The notes beneath the pieces were generated by a model, which had not been told where the DNA came from, did not search any database, and saw only the letters and a list, made by a program, of their open reading frames with translations. DNA of 64,000 bases from Escherichia coli (GTDB taxonomy: Bacteria; Pseudomonadota; Gammaproteobacteria; Enterobacterales; Enterobacteriaceae), in NCBI RefSeq assembly GCF_011045215.1, contig NZ_CP049201.1; one strand, 5' to 3'. Positions 6,727 through 22,758 of the stretch are shown one piece after another (position 1 is the first letter of the stretch; each line of letters opens with the position of its first letter). The position numbers and the translations under genes were made by a program.

Positions 6727-8154
6727 TTAGACGATCTCTTCCGCGTACTGCCAAAGCGCTTTTAACAGCGCCACTTTCTCTTTGTTATCGGCATATTGTT
6801 GTGCCAGCATCTGCAATTCATCTGCATAACCTTGTAAAAACTCGGGCGTGAAGACCTGGCGGCGGTGCTCCAGCCAGCGTTGCTGCTCGGCATAATCCAG
6901 CGTCCCCGGGAAGTTGCGTGCCCGATAATTGAACAACAGTTTTTCAATTCGTTTATCAACAAAAGTGATATCCAGTGCCGGTAAATTACGCGGCTCGGTT
7001 TCCAGCACAATTTTCATTGCTGCGCGATCGGCGTCACTGAAAAAGCCGTTATAAAGCTGTGCATCCACGTTATCTGAAGGCGTAAACGGTTCGGCTTCCG
7101 CGAATATCGCCACCACTTTTTCACGCACTTGCGGATTTTCACGCAGAATTTTCAGGTTATCGAGGCAATGCTGACGATTAATTCCCAGTCGGTCGGCATC
7201 TTCCGGGCGTAGCGTATTCGCCTGGGCCAGCACCGGACATTTATTGATGTGCACCAGCTTAACCGGAACGGCGGCGTTATCGCCAAGATCGGTTTTTGCG
7301 GTATATAAACGCTCGCGCAATGTGTCGCTATCCAGTTCCAGTAATGGCGAAATGTCTCCTGCCAAATCCACCATAATTATGGCATTGCGATTTTCAGGAT
7401 GCCACGCCAGCGGTGCCACCCAGCTGGTGTTGCCGCGCCATGCCCCAAACATTCCGGAAACGTGCACCAGGGGTTTCATCTGCGGAACATCAATCAACGC
7501 CATCAGTTTGTGTTTATTGCGATGGGTAAAGAGATAATCAAACAGGCGTGGCTGACGCGTTTTTACCAGCTTTGCCATCGCAATAGTGGCGTACACATCA
7601 GCCATAGCATCGTGGGCGTTGCTATGTTCAATACCATTCGCTTTGGTTAAATGCTCAAGGCGAAAGCTCGGTAGACCGTCATCATTTTCAGGCCAGTTTA
7701 TTCCTTCCGGGCGCAGGGCATAACAGGCACGCATAACATCCAGCAAATCCCAGCGCGAGTTATCATGCTGCCAGCTCCAGGCGTAAGGATCGTAGAAATT
7801 ACGATAAAAAACGTTGCGTGTGACTTCGTCGTCGAAACGCACATTGTTGTAGCCCAGAATACAGGTCTTCGGTACGTTAAAAAGCGAGTGAATACGGGCG
7901 GCAAACGCGGCTTCGTTTTCTCCTTTCGCCCGTGCTTCCTGCGGGGTAATACCGGTAATTAATACTGCTCCAGGCTGGGGCAAATAGTCATCCGCGGGCT
8001 TGCAGTAAAAGACTTCGGGTTCGCCGATGACATTGAATTCGCTATCGGTGCGAATGGCTGCGAACTGTGCAGGGCGATCTAACGCGGGGTGCGTGCCAAA
8101 GGTTTCGTAATCGTGAAACAAAAAGGTAGATTGTTGCTTACCGTCATTCATCAT
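6727..8154 (-). CDS. sbcB: exodeoxyribonuclease I SbcB (475 aa)
   Basis: ORF 6727..8202; internal ATG at 8154 gives MMNDGKQQSTFLFHDYETFGTHPALDRPAQFAAIRTD..., the DnaQ-like exonuclease fold. Confidence 0.93.
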   Translation of the reverse strand: MMNDGKQQSTFLFHDYETFGTHPALDRPAQFAAIRTDSEFNVIGEPEVFYCKPADDYLPQPGAVLITGITPQEARAKGENEAAFAARIHSLFNVPKTCILGYNNVRFDDEVTRNVFYRNFYDPYAWSWQHDNSRWDLLDVMRACYALRPEGINWPENDDGLPSFRLEHLTKANGIEHSNAHDAMADVYATIAMAKLVKTRQPRLFDYLFTHRNKHKLMALIDVPQMKPLVHVSGMFGAWRGNTSWVAPLAWHPENRNAIIMVDLAGDISPLLELDSDTLRERLYTAKTDLGDNAAVPVKLVHINKCPVLAQANTLRPEDADRLGINRQHCLDNLKILRENPQVREKVVAIFAEAEPFTPSDNVDAQLYNGFFSDADRAAMKIVLETEPRNLPALDITFVDKRIEKLLFNYRARNFPGTLDYAEQQRWLEHRRQVFTPEFLQGYADELQMLAQQYADNKEKVALLKALWQYAEEIV

Positions 8155-12369: not shown

Positions 12370-14323
<1,954 letters not shown>

Positions 14324-15699: not shown

Positions 15700-15742
15700 A
15701 AATGAAAACGCCAGCTGTATTCAGGCTGGCGTCAGGGAAAAT
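15700..15742 (-). terminator. putative terminator downstream of the yeeW-like gene
   Basis: CGCCAGC...GCTGGCG inverted repeat followed by a U-rich tract on the minus strand. Confidence 0.5.
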
Positions 15743-15887
15743 GAAGCCTGTTGAGTGAGATTCACCGGTTCTGGTGCAGAAGCTGCAGATGGCGCAGGGT
15801 AAGGACATCTTCTCTTGCCTGCTTAATACAGGACAACAGTGCTGTTTCTGTGGTTAATGGCACTATACCCTGTATCACTGCATTGTC

Positions 15888-16094
15888 TTACAGCAACTGG
15901 TGAGGGCTGGCATAAGTTGCCGGTGTTTCGGTAGAGTCACGTTCATCCACCACGCGGAGTGAATCACCGTTTTCAGCGACCTTGTTAATCAGTTCAGTGA
16001 TATTAACACCATCAATATCAACGACAATTCGCCCCATATTCAGTGCCTGTACGTTAACGCTGTCGGCTTCCAGTGTCAGGGCCAGTTTCATCAT
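15888..16094 (-). CDS. YeeW-like small protein (68 aa), last gene of the toxin-antitoxin cluster
   Basis: ORF 15888..16094 directly after cbtA with a 4-nt overlap, as in CP4-type islands. Confidence 0.6.
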
Positions 16095-16465
16095 TTCGCC
16101 TCCGGATACTTACCCAGGGTGATATTGTTCACCGTTCTGTAGTTGTGGCGGGTCATCAGGCCTGTTGCCCGGCGAGCCCGGAGAATATCAATGCTGTTGA
16201 TTAACTGCGACGAGGCTCCTGCGCTGAATCCCGGCTGGTCAGTTCGTACCAGTGCGTATTTTTCCACGAGAAAGTTCACTGCATCACACAGTGAAATGCC
16301 TGCCTCAATATGCTGCTCAATCACGCGTTCATCCACGAACGGTGTGTCATTCAGCGTAAGGCTGTAATGCTGGTCCAGTAACCGGGTGAGCAGTGTCTGC
16401 CAGATGGTGACGGGAGACGGGCAGCACGATACCTCCCGTACATGCGTGTCGGGTAATGTTTTCAT
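16091..16465 (-). CDS. cbtA: CbtA/YeeV-family toxin (cytoskeleton-binding; 124 aa)
   Basis: ORF 16091..16465, [43 protein letters not shown]...[17 protein letters not shown]; near full-length match to recalled CbtA. Confidence 0.88.
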
Positions 16466-16554
16466 ACTGAAGATTTTCCTGATATGCAGAGATAAAAAAT
16501 GGGACAGTGGCGTGGTGAAAACACCAGGCCGGAGCAGAAGGTTATTCTGGTGGT

Positions 16555-16923
16555 TTACTTTTTCGTTTCAGGTGTCGGATAAACAGCCAGATAAACGTAA
16601 CCACAGGAGCCGAGGGTGTCGGCTTCACAGGTCAGCCCCTTCGCATACAGTGTCACGGTATGCTGATGGCGGGGATTCAGTTCACCACTGGTGAGCATTA
16701 ATTTCAGTTGTTTCATCAGCAGCGGAAAGGCCTGGTCCAGAGGGTACGCATCCGCATCTCTGAACCGGCCTCTGATACCGGCACGGTCGGCAAGGTAATG
16801 CAACCGGTTACCCTCCTGCACCAGACGGGCGCCGAAACAGGGCGTCACTGTGCAGGGTAGTCCCCACCAGGGATGGTCGTTATTGTCATCGGGATGCGTT
16901 GTCCCGGAAAGTGTGTCTGACAC
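16555..16923 (-). CDS. cbeA: CbeA/YeeU-family antitoxin (122 aa, GTG start)
   Basis: ORF 16555..17031; GTG at 16923 gives (M)[48 protein letters not shown]...; immediately upstream of cbtA. Confidence 0.85.
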
Positions 16924-17085
16924 GATAAAATCCTCACAGAAAATCGGTGAATGATAGTTTAACGATGACGGGTCAGCCGGCGCGCAGACCGGCTTCGGTA
17001 AAGGTGTATTCGTTGATGAGCAGGACCTCATCCACAGCGGCGTCTGAGCTCAGCCAGTCGTACTCGTTTTCCGGGTGACGGAACA

Positions 17086-17307
17086 TCAGTTCAGGGTGAC
17101 GCTCATCAGCCGGACATACGGACCAAAACTGTCCTTACGGCGTTCTGCAAACACGGCCAGCACACCGGGAATATCCTGCACTTCACGACCGGTATACGCT
17201 TCAGCACTGCCGTGCCAGCGGTATTTGCCGGTACAGAACGGAAAAAGACGGGATGCCGGATGCTGACGGTGAATACGCATGGCTTCGCCACGGGTGATGA
17301 TTTTCAT
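17086..17307 (-). CDS. yeeT: DUF987-family protein YeeT-like (73 aa)
   Basis: ORF 17086..17307, MKIITRGEAMRIHRQHPASRLFPFCTGKYRWHGSAEAYTGREVQDIPGVLAV... Confidence 0.85.
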   Translation of the reverse strand: MKIITRGEAMRIHRQHPASRLFPFCTGKYRWHGSAEAYTGREVQDIPGVLAVFAERRKDSFGPYVRLMSVTLN

Positions 17308-17369
17308 AGTGGGATACCTCTGAAGACAGAAGATAAAAGTGAAAACAGGTGTGATGTGGTTGTGACGGG

Positions 17370-17846
17370 TTAAAGCAGACCATGTTCGGCAAAGGAGAAA
17401 ACCTGGCTGCCACCGACTATCAGATGGTCCGGCACCCGGATATCCACCAGGCCCAGTGCCTGTACCAGACGTTCCGTGATAAGGCGGTCTGCCTTGCTGG
17501 GTGTGACTTCACCGGACGGGTGATTGTGTGCCAGCACCACGGCAGCGGCATTGTGATACAGGGCGCGTTTAATCACTTCACGGGGATGGACTTCCGTGCG
17601 GTTGATGGTGCCGGTGAAGAGGGTTTCACCGGCAATCAGCTGATTCTGGTTGTTCAGATACAGCACCCGGAACTCTTCACGCTCCAGTCCCGCCATGTTC
17701 AGAATCAGCCATTCTCGTGCCGCACGGGTGGAGGTGAAGGCCACGCCGGGTTCATGAAGATGGCGGTCCAGGGTTTTCAGGGCCCGTTGAATGAGGCTGC
17801 GCTCGCCGGGCGTCATCTCTCCGGGCAGAAAGGAAAGCTGTTGCAT
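17370..17846 (-). CDS. RadC-like JAB/MPN-domain protein (YeeS/YfjY family, 158 aa)
   Basis: ORF 17370..17861; ATG at 17846 follows GAGAGAAG; JAMM motif HNHPSG. Confidence 0.85.
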   Translation of the reverse strand: MQQLSFLPGEMTPGERSLIQRALKTLDRHLHEPGVAFTSTRAAREWLILNMAGLEREEFRVLYLNNQNQLIAGETLFTGTINRTEVHPREVIKRALYHNAAAVVLAHNHPSGEVTPSKADRLITERLVQALGLVDIRVPDHLIVGGSQVFSFAEHGLL

Positions 17847-17861
17847 TGTACTTCTCTCCAT

Positions 17862-18335
17862 TCAGTCGATGATGCGCATAATGGCGCTGCATTCCGGATG
17901 CTGCAGGGCGTAATCCCGCAGCCGGTAATAATGGACCGTCATAGCATAACACTCCGTACGACAGGCATGATGACTGTACGTCATCAGACAGGCAGCAATG
18001 CCGGCGGCTTCCGGGCTCATTTCAGCGCGGTTACCGTTCATGGCATTGAACAGTACCCATGTTTCGTCATCATCGTCATCCGGTTCGGGTGCCATAAATG
18101 CCCCGCCGTTGTTCAGGGTGTACAGATTCCAGATACCACCGCAGTAGTCTTCGCACAGACGGTCCATCCAGCCGAAGACACGGGGCTCCAGGGTCACCCA
18201 CTGTGGAATGAGGCCAAAGTGCTGCGGCCAGAAGCTGATGCGCTGTTCATCAGGGACGAGGGTGGCAACCAGTTGTTGCAGGTCAGTCTCCGGTGCACAG
18301 GCCGAAGAGGTGGTGTTCTGAGACAATGTTTTCAT
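17862..18335 (-). CDS. antirestriction protein, KlcA/ArdB family (YfjX-like, 157 aa)
   Basis: Internal ATG at 18335 of ORF 17862..18743 gives MKTLSQNTTSSACAPETDLQQLVATLVPDEQRISFWPQHFGL...; acidic DDDDDE patch; ORF upstream of 18335 runs into the IS21 end and is not genic. Confidence 0.75.
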   Translation of the reverse strand: MKTLSQNTTSSACAPETDLQQLVATLVPDEQRISFWPQHFGLIPQWVTLEPRVFGWMDRLCEDYCGGIWNLYTLNNGGAFMAPEPDDDDDETWVLFNAMNGNRAEMSPEAAGIAACLMTYSHHACRTECYAMTVHYYRLRDYALQHPECSAIMRIID

Positions 18336-18938
18336 GTATGAAATCCTTGTAATGTGAATAAATGAGAGGGAGTAAAGGTCGGGAGCTGGCAACATCACGT
18401 TCATCACTGACCGTGATGACCCGGTAATATCAGGGATGAATGATATTCGGCTGAAATTCCGGACAGCCGTACGCGTAACCGTTCCGGTCACAGACGGATG
18501 GCCAGATGCCATTGCCTGTATACTCAGTCTGCACAGACTGATTTCTCCGGGACGGTAAATCAGACGGGTACACCAGGCGCACAGGTCATCATCAGAAATG
18601 GAACGACACCCCGGCAGCGCCTCCGGGGCGTCGGGTGATTCTGGTGCCTGAATCACGCCTTCAGGGACATGCTGCATCAGCGCAGGCTCTCCAGCAGCGT
18701 TTCTGCCTGCAAAATGGCATCTGAATCGATCGCAGTTTGGCATTCGAATCGATCATGATTTGGCATCCATCTCCGATCACAGTTTGGCATCACAATCGAT
18801 CACGATTTGGCATACTTCCGATCATTGATTGGAATTCGCCAGTCACTCCGGGAATTAACTCTTTTCACCACAGTCTCCATTGCCGTGTTTAAACCAGTGG
18901 AGACGTCAATGTCCAAAAAGAGAAAATCCAGGAGCACT

Positions 18939-20474
18939 ATGGAAACTTGTTTTAAGATCCTTCAGCTCAAGTTCGATAAGAAGCTGACTAACCGTTGTAT
19001 CGGACTGACGTTACACATCAGCGCCTCAACCGTTTTTGAGGTTCTTGCCCGCTTCAAAGCCTCTTCTCTGTCATGGCCATTACCTGCTGATATATCCCAT
19101 GACACGCTGGAGAAACTCATTTTCCCGCCCAAAGACACCTCTGCGTCAGAGCTTGTTATGCCTGACATGCTGTACTTCGATACGGAAATGAGAAAACCTG
19201 GCGTGACGCGCCAACTGTTGTGGATGGAATACAAGGCACAGGCGGGTGACAAAGCGATGGGATACTCACACTTCTGCCGTTGCTACCGGAAGTGGAAAAA
19301 AACGCGACGCCTCTCCATGCGACAGGAGCATCGTGCTGGCGAAAAGCTCTTTATCGACTTCTGTGGTCCTACGGTCCCTGTTATTAATCCGGACACCGGA
19401 GAGATACGCCGCGTGGCAATCTTCGTGGCTGTAATGGGGGCGTCCAACTATACCTATGTTGAAGCGTGCGAAGGTCAGGACATGATGTCATGGTTAAATG
19501 CCCACAGCCGTTGCCTGACCTTCCTGGGCGGCGTACCGAAGCTGCTCATCCCCGATAACCTCAGAAGCGCAGTGAAAAAAGCCGATCGCTATGAGCCTGT
19601 CATCAACGACAGTTATCAGGCGCTGGCTGAGCACTATGGCACGGTTATTATCCCGGCCCGCCCGCGCAAACCTAAAGATAAACCAAAAGCAGAAAACGGC
19701 GTCCTCATCGTCGAGCGATGGCTTCTTGCCCGCATCCGTAATGAAACCTTCCACACGCTCAGGGCGCTGAATGCACGCCTTCGGGAGTTGCTGACGGACA
19801 TGAATAACCGACCAATGAAGGGATACGGTAATCAAACCCGCGCAGAACGCTTCCGCATGCTGGATGCACCAGCACTCTCTCCGCTGCCTCTGGAGCCTTA
19901 TGAATACACGGAATACAAAGCCGTGAAGGTTGGCCCTGACTACCACGTTGAATATGCCCGTCACTGGTACTCCGTTCCACACGAACTGGTCGGTCAGCGT
20001 CTGTCACTGAAGGTGGGGCAGTCGGTGGTACAGCTCTGGCACAAGGGGCAGTGTGTGGCGCAACATCCGCGCAGCACACATGAATATAAACACACAACCA
20101 ATCCGCTTCACATGCCAGAACGCCACCGGCGGCATGGGACATGGACACCGGAACGCCTTATCGAGCAGGGAAACCGTACAGGTCCGTCCACAGGCCGGGT
20201 GGTTGAATCCATGCTGAAAGCCAAACCCCATCCGGAGCTGGCTTACCGTGCAGTCCTGGGTCTGCTGGCACTTCAGAAAAAATACGGCCCGGAACGGCTG
20301 GAAAAGGCCTGTTACGTTGCCCTGCACTATAACGCCCCGGACAGACGCTTTATCGACAATCTGCTGCGTCATCATCGGGATAACGTTGAGCTTCCGTTAT
20401 CCCGCCAGGGCGAACAACATCCGGCATATGCTTCAGAGCATGAAAACCTGCGTGGTCCTGGCTACTACCACTGA
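18939..20474 (+). CDS. istA: IS21-family transposase IstA (about 512 aa; alternative ATG at 18909)
   Basis: ORF 18807..20474; ATG at 18939 preceded by GGAG; helix-turn-helix N-terminus and DDE core (FIDFCGP...VMGASNYTYVEA...). Confidence 0.85.
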   Translation: METCFKILQLKFDKKLTNRCIGLTLHISASTVFEVLARFKASSLSWPLPADISHDTLEKLIFPPKDTSASELVMPDMLYFDTEMRKPGVTRQLLWMEYKAQAGDKAMGYSHFCRCYRKWKKTRRLSMRQEHRAGEKLFIDFCGPTVPVINPDTGEIRRVAIFVAVMGASNYTYVEACEGQDMMSWLNAHSRCLTFLGGVPKLLIPDNLRSAVKKADRYEPVINDSYQALAEHYGTVIIPARPRKPKDKPKAENGVLIVERWLLARIRNETFHTLRALNARLRELLTDMNNRPMKGYGNQTRAERFRMLDAPALSPLPLEPYEYTEYKAVKVGPDYHVEYARHWYSVPHELVGQRLSLKVGQSVVQLWHKGQCVAQHPRSTHEYKHTTNPLHMPERHRRHGTWTPERLIEQGNRTGPSTGRVVESMLKAKPHPELAYRAVLGLLALQKKYGPERLEKACYVALHYNAPDRRFIDNLLRHHRDNVELPLSRQGEQHPAYASEHENLRGPGYYH

Positions 20475-20490
20475 CAGAAGGAACAACCGT

Positions 20491-21246
20491 ATGAGTGATA
20501 ATCTGTTAAACAAACTGACCCAACTGAAACTCCCGGCGATGGCCGGGAGCCTGATACGGCAACGGGAAACGCCTCAGACTTACGACGAACTGTCGTTCGA
20601 GGAAAGGCTGACACTGCTGGTTGATGACGAGCTTCTGAGCAGAGAAAACAGTCGTGTGGCACGGTTGAGAAAAAATGCCTGCCTGAAATATCAGGCAACA
20701 CCGGAAGGGCTGCGTTATCCGGCCTCAAGAGGTCTGCGGGCTGAACAGATGAGGGAACTGCTGAACGGCCACTACATAATCCACAGGAAAAACCTACTGA
20801 TAACCGGTCCGACAGGATGCGGTAAGAGCTGGATAGCCAATGCGCTGGGCGAACAGGCATGTCGACAGAAATACAGCGTCCGGTACTGTAGAACCGGGCG
20901 ATTACTGGAACAGTTGGCTCAGGGACGTGTTGATGGCAGTTGGCTGAAATATCTGAAACAGTTGCAAAAAATACAGGTTCTAATCCTGGACGATCTGGGG
21001 CTGGAACAGTTAAGTAACGCCCAGTGTAATGACCTTCTGGAGATCACAGAGGATCGTTACGGACAAAGCAGCACGATAGTGGTAAGCCAGTTCCCGGTAG
21101 ATAAATGGCATGGTCTGATGGAGAACCCAACAACAGCAGATGCCATCCTGGACAGACTGGTACATAACTCACACAGAGTGGTCCTTCAGGGAGAGTCCCT
21201 GAGGAAAAATCCCCCGACAGTGGAAAGCAGCGAAAAAACGAGTTAA
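20491..21246 (+). CDS. istB: IS21-family helper ATPase IstB (251 aa)
   Basis: ATG at 20491 (MSDNLLNKLTQLKLPAMAG...); Walker A ITGPTGCGKSWIA and Walker B LILDDLG. Confidence 0.9.
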   Translation: MSDNLLNKLTQLKLPAMAGSLIRQRETPQTYDELSFEERLTLLVDDELLSRENSRVARLRKNACLKYQATPEGLRYPASRGLRAEQMRELLNGHYIIHRKNLLITGPTGCGKSWIANALGEQACRQKYSVRYCRTGRLLEQLAQGRVDGSWLKYLKQLQKIQVLILDDLGLEQLSNAQCNDLLEITEDRYGQSSTIVVSQFPVDKWHGLMENPTTADAILDRLVHNSHRVVLQGESLRKNPPTVESSEKTS

Positions 21247-21348
21247 AAAGCGGTAGAAAAAGTTAAGTTCCCGGTTGATCGAATGGATGCGAATCGCTGA
21301 TCGAACTTCGATGCCAATCCGTGATCGAATAGAGCGGAATACGCATTC

Positions 21349-22140
21349 TGCCATTACCCACAATGCGCGGTTGAGCTTAATATCGGTGTCGATGTTGTGA
21401 ATGGCACGGGTGTGGATACGTTTTCCTTTTGCACTGCGGCCGGAAATCCCGCCTTTCAGCATATTCTCCTGGATGGTCTGATAAGTACTCCACAGGTCCT
21501 TACCGTAATCCTCCCGGCGTCGTGGCGTCAGAATGTCGGCGGTGGTGACGGGCCGATGTTCGTCACCATAACGGTAAGTCAGTGCCGCCTGTGCCAGCGC
21601 CTGGCGTGCCGGTGGCGGCAGGACCAGCGACTGCATGGCATCACGCTTCTCCTCTATCCGGTCAAACACGCCCACCACCTCGTAAGCCCCTTCAATGACT
21701 CTGTCCACCACATTTCCCCGATGCGGAACACGCACTTCCCCCAGAGACTGACCACAGACGCATCCGTTCTGACAGACGAACCTGAAGTAACCCGGCAGCA
21801 TCTGGTAGCTGGAGGTACCGTCATGGGAGTTGAGCAGAATGATTTCAGGGACATGTTCTCCGTTTATCTCTCCGGCCCGCCGCAGACGCAGCATGTGTTT
21901 TGTGTATCCCCGGCGGCCCGGGTCGCGCACACGGGTCTGGCAGGCGAAGAATGGCTGAAAGCCTTCCCGCTGCAGGCTTTCCAGTACGGTGATGGTGGGG
22001 ATGTACGTATAGTTCTGGCTTCGGGACGTGTGTTTCTCTTCCCCGAAAATCCCCGGCACATAGTGCATCAGTTCTTCGTGTGTCAGCGGACGGTCACGGC
22101 GTATCTGGTTCGCATAACCAAAACGACTGGCTAGTCGCAT
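21349..22140 (-). pseudogene. DUF932-family protein (YfjQ/YafZ-like), C-terminus replaced by the IS21 terminus
   Basis: ORF 21169..22140 starts MRLASRFGYANQIRRDRPLTHEELMHYVPGIF...; after about 264 residues the frame reads into IS terminal sequence. Confidence 0.7.
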
Positions 22141-22523: not shown

Positions 22524-22595
22524 TCAGAAAGTCACATTCAGCGTGGCCTGACCGTTATAACCTTCAGCGCTGCTGCCGCTGACGCTGTGGGCATA
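22524..22595 (-). pseudogene. flu: 3'-terminal remnant (last 23 codons) of antigen 43 autotransporter gene flu/agn43
   Basis: Minus strand encodes [23 protein letters not shown], an autotransporter C-terminal beta-strand ending in Phe; no ~3 kb ORF upstream. Confidence 0.65.
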
Positions 22596-22758
22596 CCGGC
22601 AGGTACAAAACAGCATGGTCAGATAAAGTGGTTTTTCCCGGACATAAATGCTTCCCCTCTCTCATCCGCCAGAGAAGTATCAGTCCGTTGTGTGCAATTC
22701 CGTTCTGCATGATGAAGAGATTCAGCTGCCTTTTCGCAGACCATTAACCACTATAAAC

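Follow-up and report, generated by a model that had tools for sequence, protein, structure and literature searches.

Genomic context and gene content

Six co-directional open reading frames (ORFs) lie on the minus strand between positions 15888 and 18335 of the window, the 64,000-nt stretch of DNA analysed here (Table 1). The ORF listing places them where the first-pass annotation had described them, and comparison with Pfam and with Escherichia coli K-12 bears out both its gene identities (antirestriction, RadC-like, yeeT, cbeA, cbtA and yeeW-like) and the CP4-type order. Re-inspection revealed neither frameshifts nor premature or internal stops in any of the six, and a Shine-Dalgarno-like motif precedes each start. 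The description of the genes as tightly packed is apt for some junctions only: from the yeeW-like ORF towards the antirestriction gene, the intergenic gaps are -4 nt (the yeeW-like start overlaps the cbtA stop, ATGA), 89, 162, 62 and 15 nt.

The cassette is carried by the E. coli chromosome at the usual CP4-44 site, in the interval from tmaR (yeeX) to cobU, and its flanks are those of the K-12 CP4-44 neighbourhood, with dacD, sbmC, yeeA and tmaR on one side and cobUST and asnV on the other. Identity to the corresponding region of many sequenced strains is 99.8%, and the cassette runs collinear with annotated loci of E. coli; in strain OkiPb01717, the PGAP-annotated orthologues have the same lengths, with 7 nt differences over 3,008 bp. 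Of 5,426 complete E. coli genomes, 4,980 (~92%) contain such a cassette; the copies occupy 14,134 places, and the median genome has 3. The cassette is thus already known and is among the commonest accessory gene sets of E. coli, and its CbtA/CbeA toxin-antitoxin pair has been under study since 2003. No second copy was found within the window, and the closest relatives hold a single module copy per record. None of the PADLOC phage-defence models matched the seven proteins searched, and an Rfam search of the spacers (gathering thresholds or E<=1) yielded a single, meaningless hit.

Table 1. Coordinates of the cassette genes, spacers, gene remnants and upstream neighbours in the window.
Feature	Position	Strand	Match or conservation
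DUF957 gene remnant	15762..15854	-	Aligned to intact L005
yeeW-like ORF, 68 aa; truncated DUF5983 gene, N-terminal domain only	15888..16094	-	DUF5983_N sole match
cbtA-family toxin gene, 124 aa, full length	16091..16465	-	CbtA_toxin (PF06755) 1-112/112, E=2.5e-60
cbeA-cbtA spacer, 89 nt; Shine-Dalgarno-like AGGAAAA before cbtA	16466..16554	-	91-100% conserved across copies
cbeA (yeeU) antitoxin gene, 122 aa, native GTG start	16555..16923	-	CbeA_antitoxin (PF06154) 1-100/101, E=8e-53
DUF8835 3' stump, last ~37 codons (113 nt)	16973..17085	-	95% nt identity to 3' end of L021 1838-2482
yeeT (DUF987), 73 aa, full length	17086..17307	-	DUF987 1-65/65, E=1.5e-40
yeeS, RadC-like JAB/JAMM protein gene, 158 aa	17370..17846	-	RadC 2-121/121
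ardB, ArdB-type antirestriction gene, 157 aa, full length	17862..18335	-	Antirestrict (PF03230) 1-92/92
Upstream spacer, 341 nt	18336..18676	-	99.4-100% conserved where present
IS21-family insertion sequence (istA/istB), 2,638 bp	18708..21345	+	Junctions vs uninterrupted L002
DUF932 gene, upstream neighbour of the cassette	21169..22140	-	DUF932 1-227/227, Pfam domain intact

The spacer upstream of ardB is missing from two module variants (L006 and L007). It contains a GC-rich hairpin (18604-18633) located after the DUF932 stop; no family match was found within its 341 nt, nor could any resemblance to the CP4-57 lfgA promoter/ypjI region be detected. A sigma-70 consensus scan of the minus (coding) strand upstream of ardB returned no promoter-like site, so that we infer rather than demonstrate co-transcription: by analogy with the paralogous yfjXY-ypjJ-yfjZF operon, the six genes are probably transcribed together from a promoter upstream of ardB, which probably lies within these 341 nt. 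The insertion sequence (IS), 372 bp upstream of ardB, is bounded by a duplicated 7-bp target (TTCTGCC at 18701-18707 and again at 21346-21352), and the same IS100 insertion is common to the best-matching E. coli genomes. The density of insertion sequences had hinted at a Shigella origin, but no other evidence for one emerged from the collection searched, which does not include Shigella genomes. In place of its last 7 codons, the DUF932 gene has a tail of 59 codons that is read from the IS.

The site and gene order of the surrounding island (11.9-37.0 kb; yeeP ... yeeW) match those of CP4-44, but flu is deleted save for its last ~29 codons and ardB stands in place of yeeR. Neither an annotated integrase nor any transfer or integration machinery was found in the island. 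The first-pass annotation had contrasted the intact cassette with the many pseudogenes around it. Damage to flu, DUF932, DUF905 and hyp305 is indeed evident; the contrast was nevertheless overstated, because many other island genes within the window are intact, including those for the yeeP GTPase, Hha-family, Gp2-family, two zinc-ribbon, HTH and EutP/PduV-like proteins, among others.

Predicted products of the cassette

The ArdB protein is identical at 154 of 157 residues (98%) to ArdB of E. coli CFT073 (PDB 2WJ9; compare KlcA, PDB 2KMG), from whose crystallised form it differs by the substitutions D18G, L26I and D62N. Judging from this similarity, it would block Type I restriction in vivo. 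A longer version of the protein, encoded by ORF 17862-18743, was rejected: the extension carries no domains and runs into the end of the IS. YeeS scores 149.6 bits against TIGR00608 (cut-off 133.85), matches PDB 2QLC and retains, as read from the translation, an intact HxHx7Sx2D metal-binding motif (HNHPSGEVTPSKAD); it is the RadC-like JAB/JAMM metalloprotein of the cassette. The YeeT product is identical to WP_000692345.1.

The CbtA product is identical to WP_000854765.1, reaches 201.8 bits against the CbtA_toxin model (cut-off 25) and shares 85.5% amino acid identity with K-12 CbtA. Its translation includes F65, the FtsZ-contact residue of CbtA (PMC5624674), and a cysteine at position 15, as in YpjF and YkfI; the first 20 residues are YpjF-like (C15), unlike those of K-12 CbtA (R15). 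An R15C change in K-12 CbtA weakens MreB binding, and C15 is the natural residue in YpjF and YkfI (PMC5624674). CbeA matches PDB 2INW and 2H28 (E~1e-75, residues 1-121), and its gene sits directly upstream of cbtA on the same strand, with the 89-nt spacer found in K-12. As judged by sequence, CbtA and CbeA are a type IV toxin-antitoxin pair of the CbtA/CbeA (YeeV/YeeU) family. By extension of the work on K-12, CbtA would bind both FtsZ, with F65 as part of the contact surface, and MreB, so that division as well as elongation would be halted and lemon-shaped cells would result; CbeA would counter the toxin by bundling and stabilising FtsZ and MreB filaments, without sequestering CbtA itself.

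The possibility that the GTG start weakens translation of cbeA, raised because the best-matching genome has ATG, was rejected, as GTG is used in K-12 MG1655, in DH1, in 10 of the 11 near-identical alleles and in 8 of the 9 CP4-44-type (YeeU/CbeA) loci with a readable start. For annotation purposes, the GTG start is therefore native and not a lesion. An extended CbeA (long ORF 16555-17031) was likewise discarded; the additional residues are devoid of domains and run into the DUF8835 stump. The D15N substitution of CbeA affects the N-terminal tail, which the Pfam domain does not cover, and is a singleton among the 11 near-identical alleles.

Decay within the module

Comparison with fuller members of the family reveals that the cassette is itself a partly decayed copy, with DUF8835 deleted, DUF5983 truncated, and DUF957 and DUF4942 lost. 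The apparent spacer of 162 nt that separates yeeT from cbeA contains a DUF8835 stump. The full gene codes for 214 aa; its first ~550 nt have been deleted here, and an ORF of 37 codons has arisen as a result, with an ATG that overlaps the stop of yeeT (TGATG). The yeeW-like ORF can be aligned to just the first 156 nt of the full-length DUF5983 gene, relatives of which encode 162 aa matching PF25638 and PF19419 (both are matched, for example, by L021). Its C-terminal end is that of K-12 YeeW, and K-12 yeeW bears the same truncation. In the DUF957 remnant, the N-terminus "LTTETAL" is fused straight to the C-terminal "...CIKQAREDVLTLR", the mark of an internal deletion; PGAP labels the same stretch in L001 and L002 as "DUF957, incomplete". 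DUF4942 is absent downstream, and an IS110 pseudogene is found there instead. The parts deleted here occur elsewhere, the DUF8835 part in 2,834 places and the C-terminal part of DUF5983 in 7,425.

The earlier statement that all six genes are full length thus holds for five of them, and for the whole set when K-12 serves as the reference, but the yeeW-like gene is truncated with respect to the wider family. Similarly, the module is canonical in its CP4-type gene order, though not in content, with DUF8835 deleted inside it and DUF5983 truncated. More generally, calls of "intact" that are based on K-12 hide decay, for the fullest versions add the DUF8835 gene and a DUF5983 protein twice as long.

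Comparison with known systems

The closest described system is the yeeS-yeeT-cbeA-cbtA-yeeW set of K-12 CP4-44 (b2002-b2006), which has the same site, gene order and strand relationship and shares the cbeA GTG, the 89-nt cbeA-cbtA spacer and the truncated C-terminal end of yeeW. Amino acid identity to its products is 99% for YeeS, 97% for YeeT, 89% for CbeA and 85% for CbtA. It differs in having yeeR where the antirestriction gene stands here, an N-terminally shorter YeeS (148 aa) and a yeeT-cbeA spacer of 73 nt without the DUF8835 stump. The operons lfgA(yfjX)-lfgB(yfjY)-ypjJ-yfjZ-ypjF of CP4-57 and yafX-ykfG-ykfH-yafW-ykfI of CP4-6 display the same order (antirestriction, RadC-like JAB, DUF987, antitoxin, toxin), and the CP4-57 gene set has been described as a single operon (PMC10846083). 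These K-12 operons are, however, only 63-82% identical to the cassette at the amino acid level, have much shorter spacers and lack a downstream DUF5983 gene.

The fullest cassettes (e.g. NZ_OZ546963.1) comprise DUF932, antirestriction, JAB, DUF987, DUF8835, YeeU, CbtA, DUF5983 (162 aa), DUF957 and DUF4942, in the same order and orientation and with ~92% nucleotide identity over the genes shared with the window copy. By comparison, the latter has only a stump of DUF8835, no DUF5983 C-terminal domain, little of DUF957 and no DUF4942, and its DUF932 gene carries an IS within the 3' end.

Selection and recombination

When compared with diverged copies, each gene yields a dN/dS between 0.04 and 0.3. 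This indicates purifying selection across the family, although such ratios mix orthologous and paralogous histories and therefore cannot locate where selection acted. Among the 11 near-identical alleles, the overall pN/pS is 0.32 (binomial p=0.0026 against neutrality), with a value of 0.17 for yeeS and ardB, while recent changes in cbtA amount to 0 nonsynonymous and 2 synonymous. Conversely, cbeA and yeeT together show 7 nonsynonymous and 0 synonymous recent changes (4 and 0 in cbeA alone), a pattern that fits neutrality (p=0.14) but not an omega of 0.15 (p=3e-4). The cbeA stop codon is lost in 2 of the 11 alleles, and stop-loss as well as frameshift variants are present in close relatives. 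Furthermore, the chance that a 2.2-kb segment would escape 12-15 random disruptions is appreciable (p 0.09-0.32). The suggestion of ongoing selection in the first-pass annotation is accordingly upheld by the dN/dS and overall pN/pS values, but not by the cbeA/yeeT changes, the lost stops or the odds of escape.

Locus L005, which lies elsewhere on the chromosome, shares 99-100% identity with the cassette from ardB to cbeA, after which identity drops to 91% in cbtA and 78% in yeeW; L004 presents the reverse pattern. These shifts in identity mark the cassette copies as recombination mosaics.

Origin of the intact genes

We consider it very likely (probability roughly 0.85) that the cassette is the distal accessory gene set of the CP4-44 cryptic integrative element, represented by a conserved but partly decayed copy, and that the integrity of its five intact genes has ordinary causes. 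Three such causes suffice: the family has long been under purifying selection, which probably acts on the element; its numerous paralogous copies recombine with one another; and the target is small. Selection to keep this particular island need not be invoked. Gene conversion cannot operate at present in the closest relatives, given their single module copy.

One alternative is that ArdB, the RadC-like protein and CbtA form a cassette for the establishment of the element, acting on entry into a new cell to counter restriction, to process DNA or protein and to delay division. In that case, horizontal transfer would be the stage at which selection conserved the genes, with the resident copy as a mere passenger. 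The constant association of the cassette with DUF932 in all loci compared, the mosaic copies at many chromosomal sites and the assignment of the ArdB homologue to the host takeover class of PHROGs are all consistent with such a role. The island is, however, devoid of transfer or integration machinery, just 7 of the 14,134 copies are borne on plasmids, and an entry function for these separate small proteins is itself putative; we therefore regard this explanation as possible, but tentative.

Pure chance, whereby the 2.2-kb target has simply not yet been struck and evolution of the resident copy is neutral, would account for the cbeA and yeeT changes, for the disrupted variants in close relatives and for the absence of hits, given the escape probability calculated above. 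It is less easily reconciled with the ratio of nonsynonymous to synonymous changes over all genes, which is below the neutral expectation, or with the low pN/pS of yeeS and ardB and the lack of nonsynonymous change in cbtA, and as a complete explanation it appears rather unlikely.

The cassette might instead be a domesticated host module that helps the cell to tolerate oxidative stress and to control biofilm formation, with the JAB protease as one possible agent. The CP4-57 paralogue LfgB (YfjY) has been reported to cleave MqsA and to protect against H2O2 (PMC10846083), while a triple toxin deletion lowers resistance to oxidative stress and antitoxin deletions increase early biofilm formation (PMC5371832); the preserved JAMM motif of YeeS is compatible with an activity of this kind. 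Yet YeeS and YfjY share just ~78% identity over residues 19-158, the region upstream of the cassette shows no detectable resemblance to that of CP4-57 lfgA, the published phenotypes are modest and come each from single laboratories, and 8% of the 5,426 complete E. coli genomes manage without the cassette. We consequently find this proposal doubtful.

The first-pass annotation had suggested ongoing selection, possibly for island maintenance. On this view, selection in the host would keep the cassette intact because CbtA/CbeA stabilise the island by addiction. Both the family-wide dN/dS and the pN/pS of the near-identical alleles could be cited in its favour, as could the absence of amino acid changes in cbtA and the damage to flu, DUF932, DUF905 and hyp305 nearby. 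Several points nonetheless speak against island maintenance. K-12 cells survive chromosomal deletion of type IV antitoxins of the CbeA family, which show weak expression and no autoregulation (PMC5371832). The island lacks an annotated integrase, and hence any site-specific excision that addiction could counter. Large parts of the island have been lost, including genes within and beside the cassette (flu, DUF8835, DUF4942 and others), and since the cassette is partly decayed, its state is no sign of selection for keeping the island. The antitoxin gene is the very one with four nonsynonymous and no synonymous changes and with lost stops, many other island genes are intact as well, and chance escape is far from negligible. 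We thus judge addiction improbable; an intact small toxin-antitoxin cassette in a decaying island is by itself no evidence of addiction or of island maintenance, and beyond correct annotation the locus has little importance. It seems more doubtful still that the five genes constitute one system rather than a pair with passengers, in which the JAB protein, whose paralogue LfgB reportedly cleaves an antitoxin, or YeeT might, for example, control the activity of CbeA or CbtA, a division delay would be combined with a restriction block upon element entry or stress, and recombination between copies would exchange the toxin segment separately from that of the antitoxin.

Gene content and distribution of the cassette

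The six co-directional minus-strand ORFs reported by the first-pass annotation are recovered by ORF calling with exactly the limits claimed (15888-18335), and the identities assigned to them are borne out by Pfam and NCBIfam matches and by annotated relatives. The cassette proteins cover the complete Pfam models CbtA_toxin, CbeA_antitoxin, DUF987, RadC and Antirestrict, YeeS passes the NCBIfam RadC subfamily model, and a Shine-Dalgarno-like motif lies ahead of each of the six starts. The yeeW-like start overlaps the cbtA stop, and the remaining intergenic gaps measure 89, 162, 62 and 15 nt. The antirestriction protein is identical at 154 of 157 positions to E. coli CFT073 ArdB, for which there is a crystal structure (PDB 2WJ9), CbeA matches two solved structures of YeeU, 2H28 and 2INW (E~1e-75), and YeeS matches a RadC-homologue structure and keeps the JAMM motif HxHx7Sx2D (HNHPSGEVTPSKAD). 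CbtA is 85% identical to its K-12 counterpart and retains F65, substitution of which abolishes FtsZ binding (PMC5624674); at position 15 it has Cys, the residue that also occurs there in two natural paralogues, YpjF and YkfI (PMC5624674). The GTG start of cbeA, which is ATG in the best-matching genome, was considered as a lesion and rejected: K-12 also begins the gene with GTG, as does every CP4-44-type allele with a readable start, except one.

The window is E. coli chromosome, flanked on one side by the his leader, sbcB, dacD, sbmC, yeeA and tmaR and on the other by cobUST, four tRNA-Asn genes and a 2,383-codon ORF, which is the setting of the CP4-44 cryptic island in K-12. Positions 15700-18707 are collinear with, and 99.8% identical to, strain OkiPb01717 (7 differences in 3,008 bp), where PGAP annotates the same six genes at the same lengths. 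Of 5,426 complete E. coli genomes, 4,980 carry the six-gene segment, at 14,134 places in all (median 3 copies per genome, nearly all chromosomal), and multi-copy CbtA with DUF5983 downstream already figures in published surveys (PMC10790755). The cassette is therefore real but entirely familiar: already known, ubiquitous and of low interest.

Coordinates of the cassette genes, gene remnants and neighbouring features
Feature	Position	Strand	Description
IS100	12436-14237		intact; istA 340 aa, istB 260 aa; between EutP/PduV-like gene and IS110 pseudogene
DUF957 remnant	15762-15854		after yeeW-like ORF; middle deleted (alignment)
yeeW-like	15888-16094	minus	68 aa
cbtA	16091-16465	minus	124 aa
cbeA	16555-16923	minus	122 aa from GTG start
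DUF8835 remnant	16973-17085	minus	last 113 nt
yeeT	17086-17307	minus	73 aa
yeeS	17370-17846	minus	158 aa
ardB (antirestriction)	17862-18335	minus	157 aa
Spacer upstream of ardB	18336-18676		341 nt
GC-rich hairpin	18604-18633		within ardB-upstream spacer
IS21-family element	18708-21345	plus (istA/istB)	2,638 bp; 7-bp target duplication TTCTGCC, within last DUF932 codons
flu (Ag43) remnant	22527-22613		deleted but for last ~29 codons; junction ~22586-22600
305-aa hypothetical gene	24645-24788		two frames, frameshift near 24645-24649; intact in 2018-11-3CC
2,383-codon ORF	50783-57934		flank

Decay inside the cassette

The genes had all been taken as full length, which holds for five of the six; the yeeW-like ORF is truncated, and a deleted gene inside the module (DUF8835) had been overlooked. 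The cassette is thus itself decayed. Full-length DUF5983 family members have 162 aa and both N- and C-terminal Pfam domains, whereas the yeeW-like ORF matches the N-terminal domain only; the window aligns to just the first 156 nt of the full-length gene, and ~370 nt are missing. Since yeeW is cut short at the same end in K-12, this truncation is old and specific to the CP4-44 locus. In another relative, DUF5983 is frameshifted.

The 162-nt yeeT-cbeA "spacer" holds the end of a 214-aa DUF8835 gene that has lost its first ~550 nt. A 37-codon ORF (MFRHPENEYDWLSSDAAVDEVLLINEYTFTEAGLRAG) arises from this deletion; its ATG overlaps the yeeT stop codon (TGATG), and it is without PGAP annotation in all genomes compared. 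The fullest cassettes read DUF932, antirestriction, JAB, DUF987, DUF8835, YeeU, CbtA, DUF5983, DUF957, DUF4942; compared with the 14,134 places for the whole cassette, the DUF8835 part missing here was found at 2,834 and the DUF5983 C-terminal part at 7,425.

Neighbouring island genes

The contrast drawn with surrounding pseudogenes stands only in part. Proteins of the close relative 2018-11-3CC, whose IS100 lies at the identical position and which is therefore of shared lineage, were mapped onto the window, and several neighbours proved damaged or lost, but many other island genes are intact. Relative to that strain, ~2.8 kb including most of flu was lost between imperfect ~12-bp microhomologies; the 305-aa hypothetical gene is frameshifted, the IS110 copy has an internal stop, and the IS21-family insertion has cost DUF932 its last 7 codons. 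This element is absent from the same site in every genome compared and shares no nucleotide similarity with the ISEc12 nearby in the close relative. Intact genes comprise the yeeP GTPase, Hha-family, inovirus-Gp2-family and EutP/PduV-like genes, two zinc-ribbon genes, an HTH gene, three small hypothetical genes and both IS100 genes. Given 12-15 disruptive events across 15-25 kb, chance alone would leave a 2.25-kb segment untouched with p 0.09-0.32.

Selection, recombination and island maintenance

All cassette genes give dN/dS of 0.04-0.3 when compared with diverged copies, so the cassette family has been under purifying selection. Ongoing selection at this locus is supported in part. In L005, a copy that occupies a different chromosomal site, ardB through cbeA are 99-100% identical to the window while cbtA is only 91% and yeeW only 78%; a second copy (L004) has the opposite pattern. 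Identity to these and to a third (L006) changes sharply on crossing the cbeA/cbtA spacer or the yeeT/yeeS boundary, with, for instance, 99-100% on one side and 78-91% on the other, and recombination among paralogous cassettes at different chromosomal sites therefore moves segments. Ratios between such mosaic copies do not show at which site selection took place. In a set of 11 near-identical alleles of the locus (the window copy, L001, L002 and L013-L020), the segregating changes comprise 14 synonymous and 14 nonsynonymous ones, giving pN/pS = 0.32 (p=0.0026 against neutrality), with many of the changes within one apparent recombinant tract. Nonsynonymous and synonymous changes number 4 and 0 in cbeA, 3 and 0 in yeeT, and 0 and 2 in cbtA. 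In two of the 11 alleles the stop codon of cbeA is gone (TAA to CAA, 153-aa product), and both are annotated as pseudogenes.

Selection for island maintenance, raised by the first-pass annotation as a possibility, is unsupported. K-12 CbtA blocks FtsZ and MreB function via separable contacts (PMC5624674), and antitoxins of the CbtA/CbeA family neutralise their toxins, are not autoregulators and are weakly expressed; they can be deleted from the chromosome (PMC5371832), which argues against addiction. No integrase is found among the annotated island genes, so that there is no excision to counter, and the island has lost much of its own content. For the paralogous set in CP4-57 a single operon has been described, with a RadC-like protein, LfgB, that is reported to be a protease (PMC10846083). 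ArdB, RadC and CbtA domains co-occur in proteins of conjugative elements, for which a role early after entry has been proposed (PMC5512222); such an element-level role would be a more coherent reading of the cassette than island maintenance.

Upstream region

A consensus scan detected no promoter upstream of ardB, the cassette region matched no Rfam family, and the cassette proteins matched no PADLOC model. No gene, domain or RNA family could be recognised in the ardB-upstream spacer. Where a copy has this spacer, it is conserved at 99.4-100%; other cassette variants carry only ~54 nt in its place.
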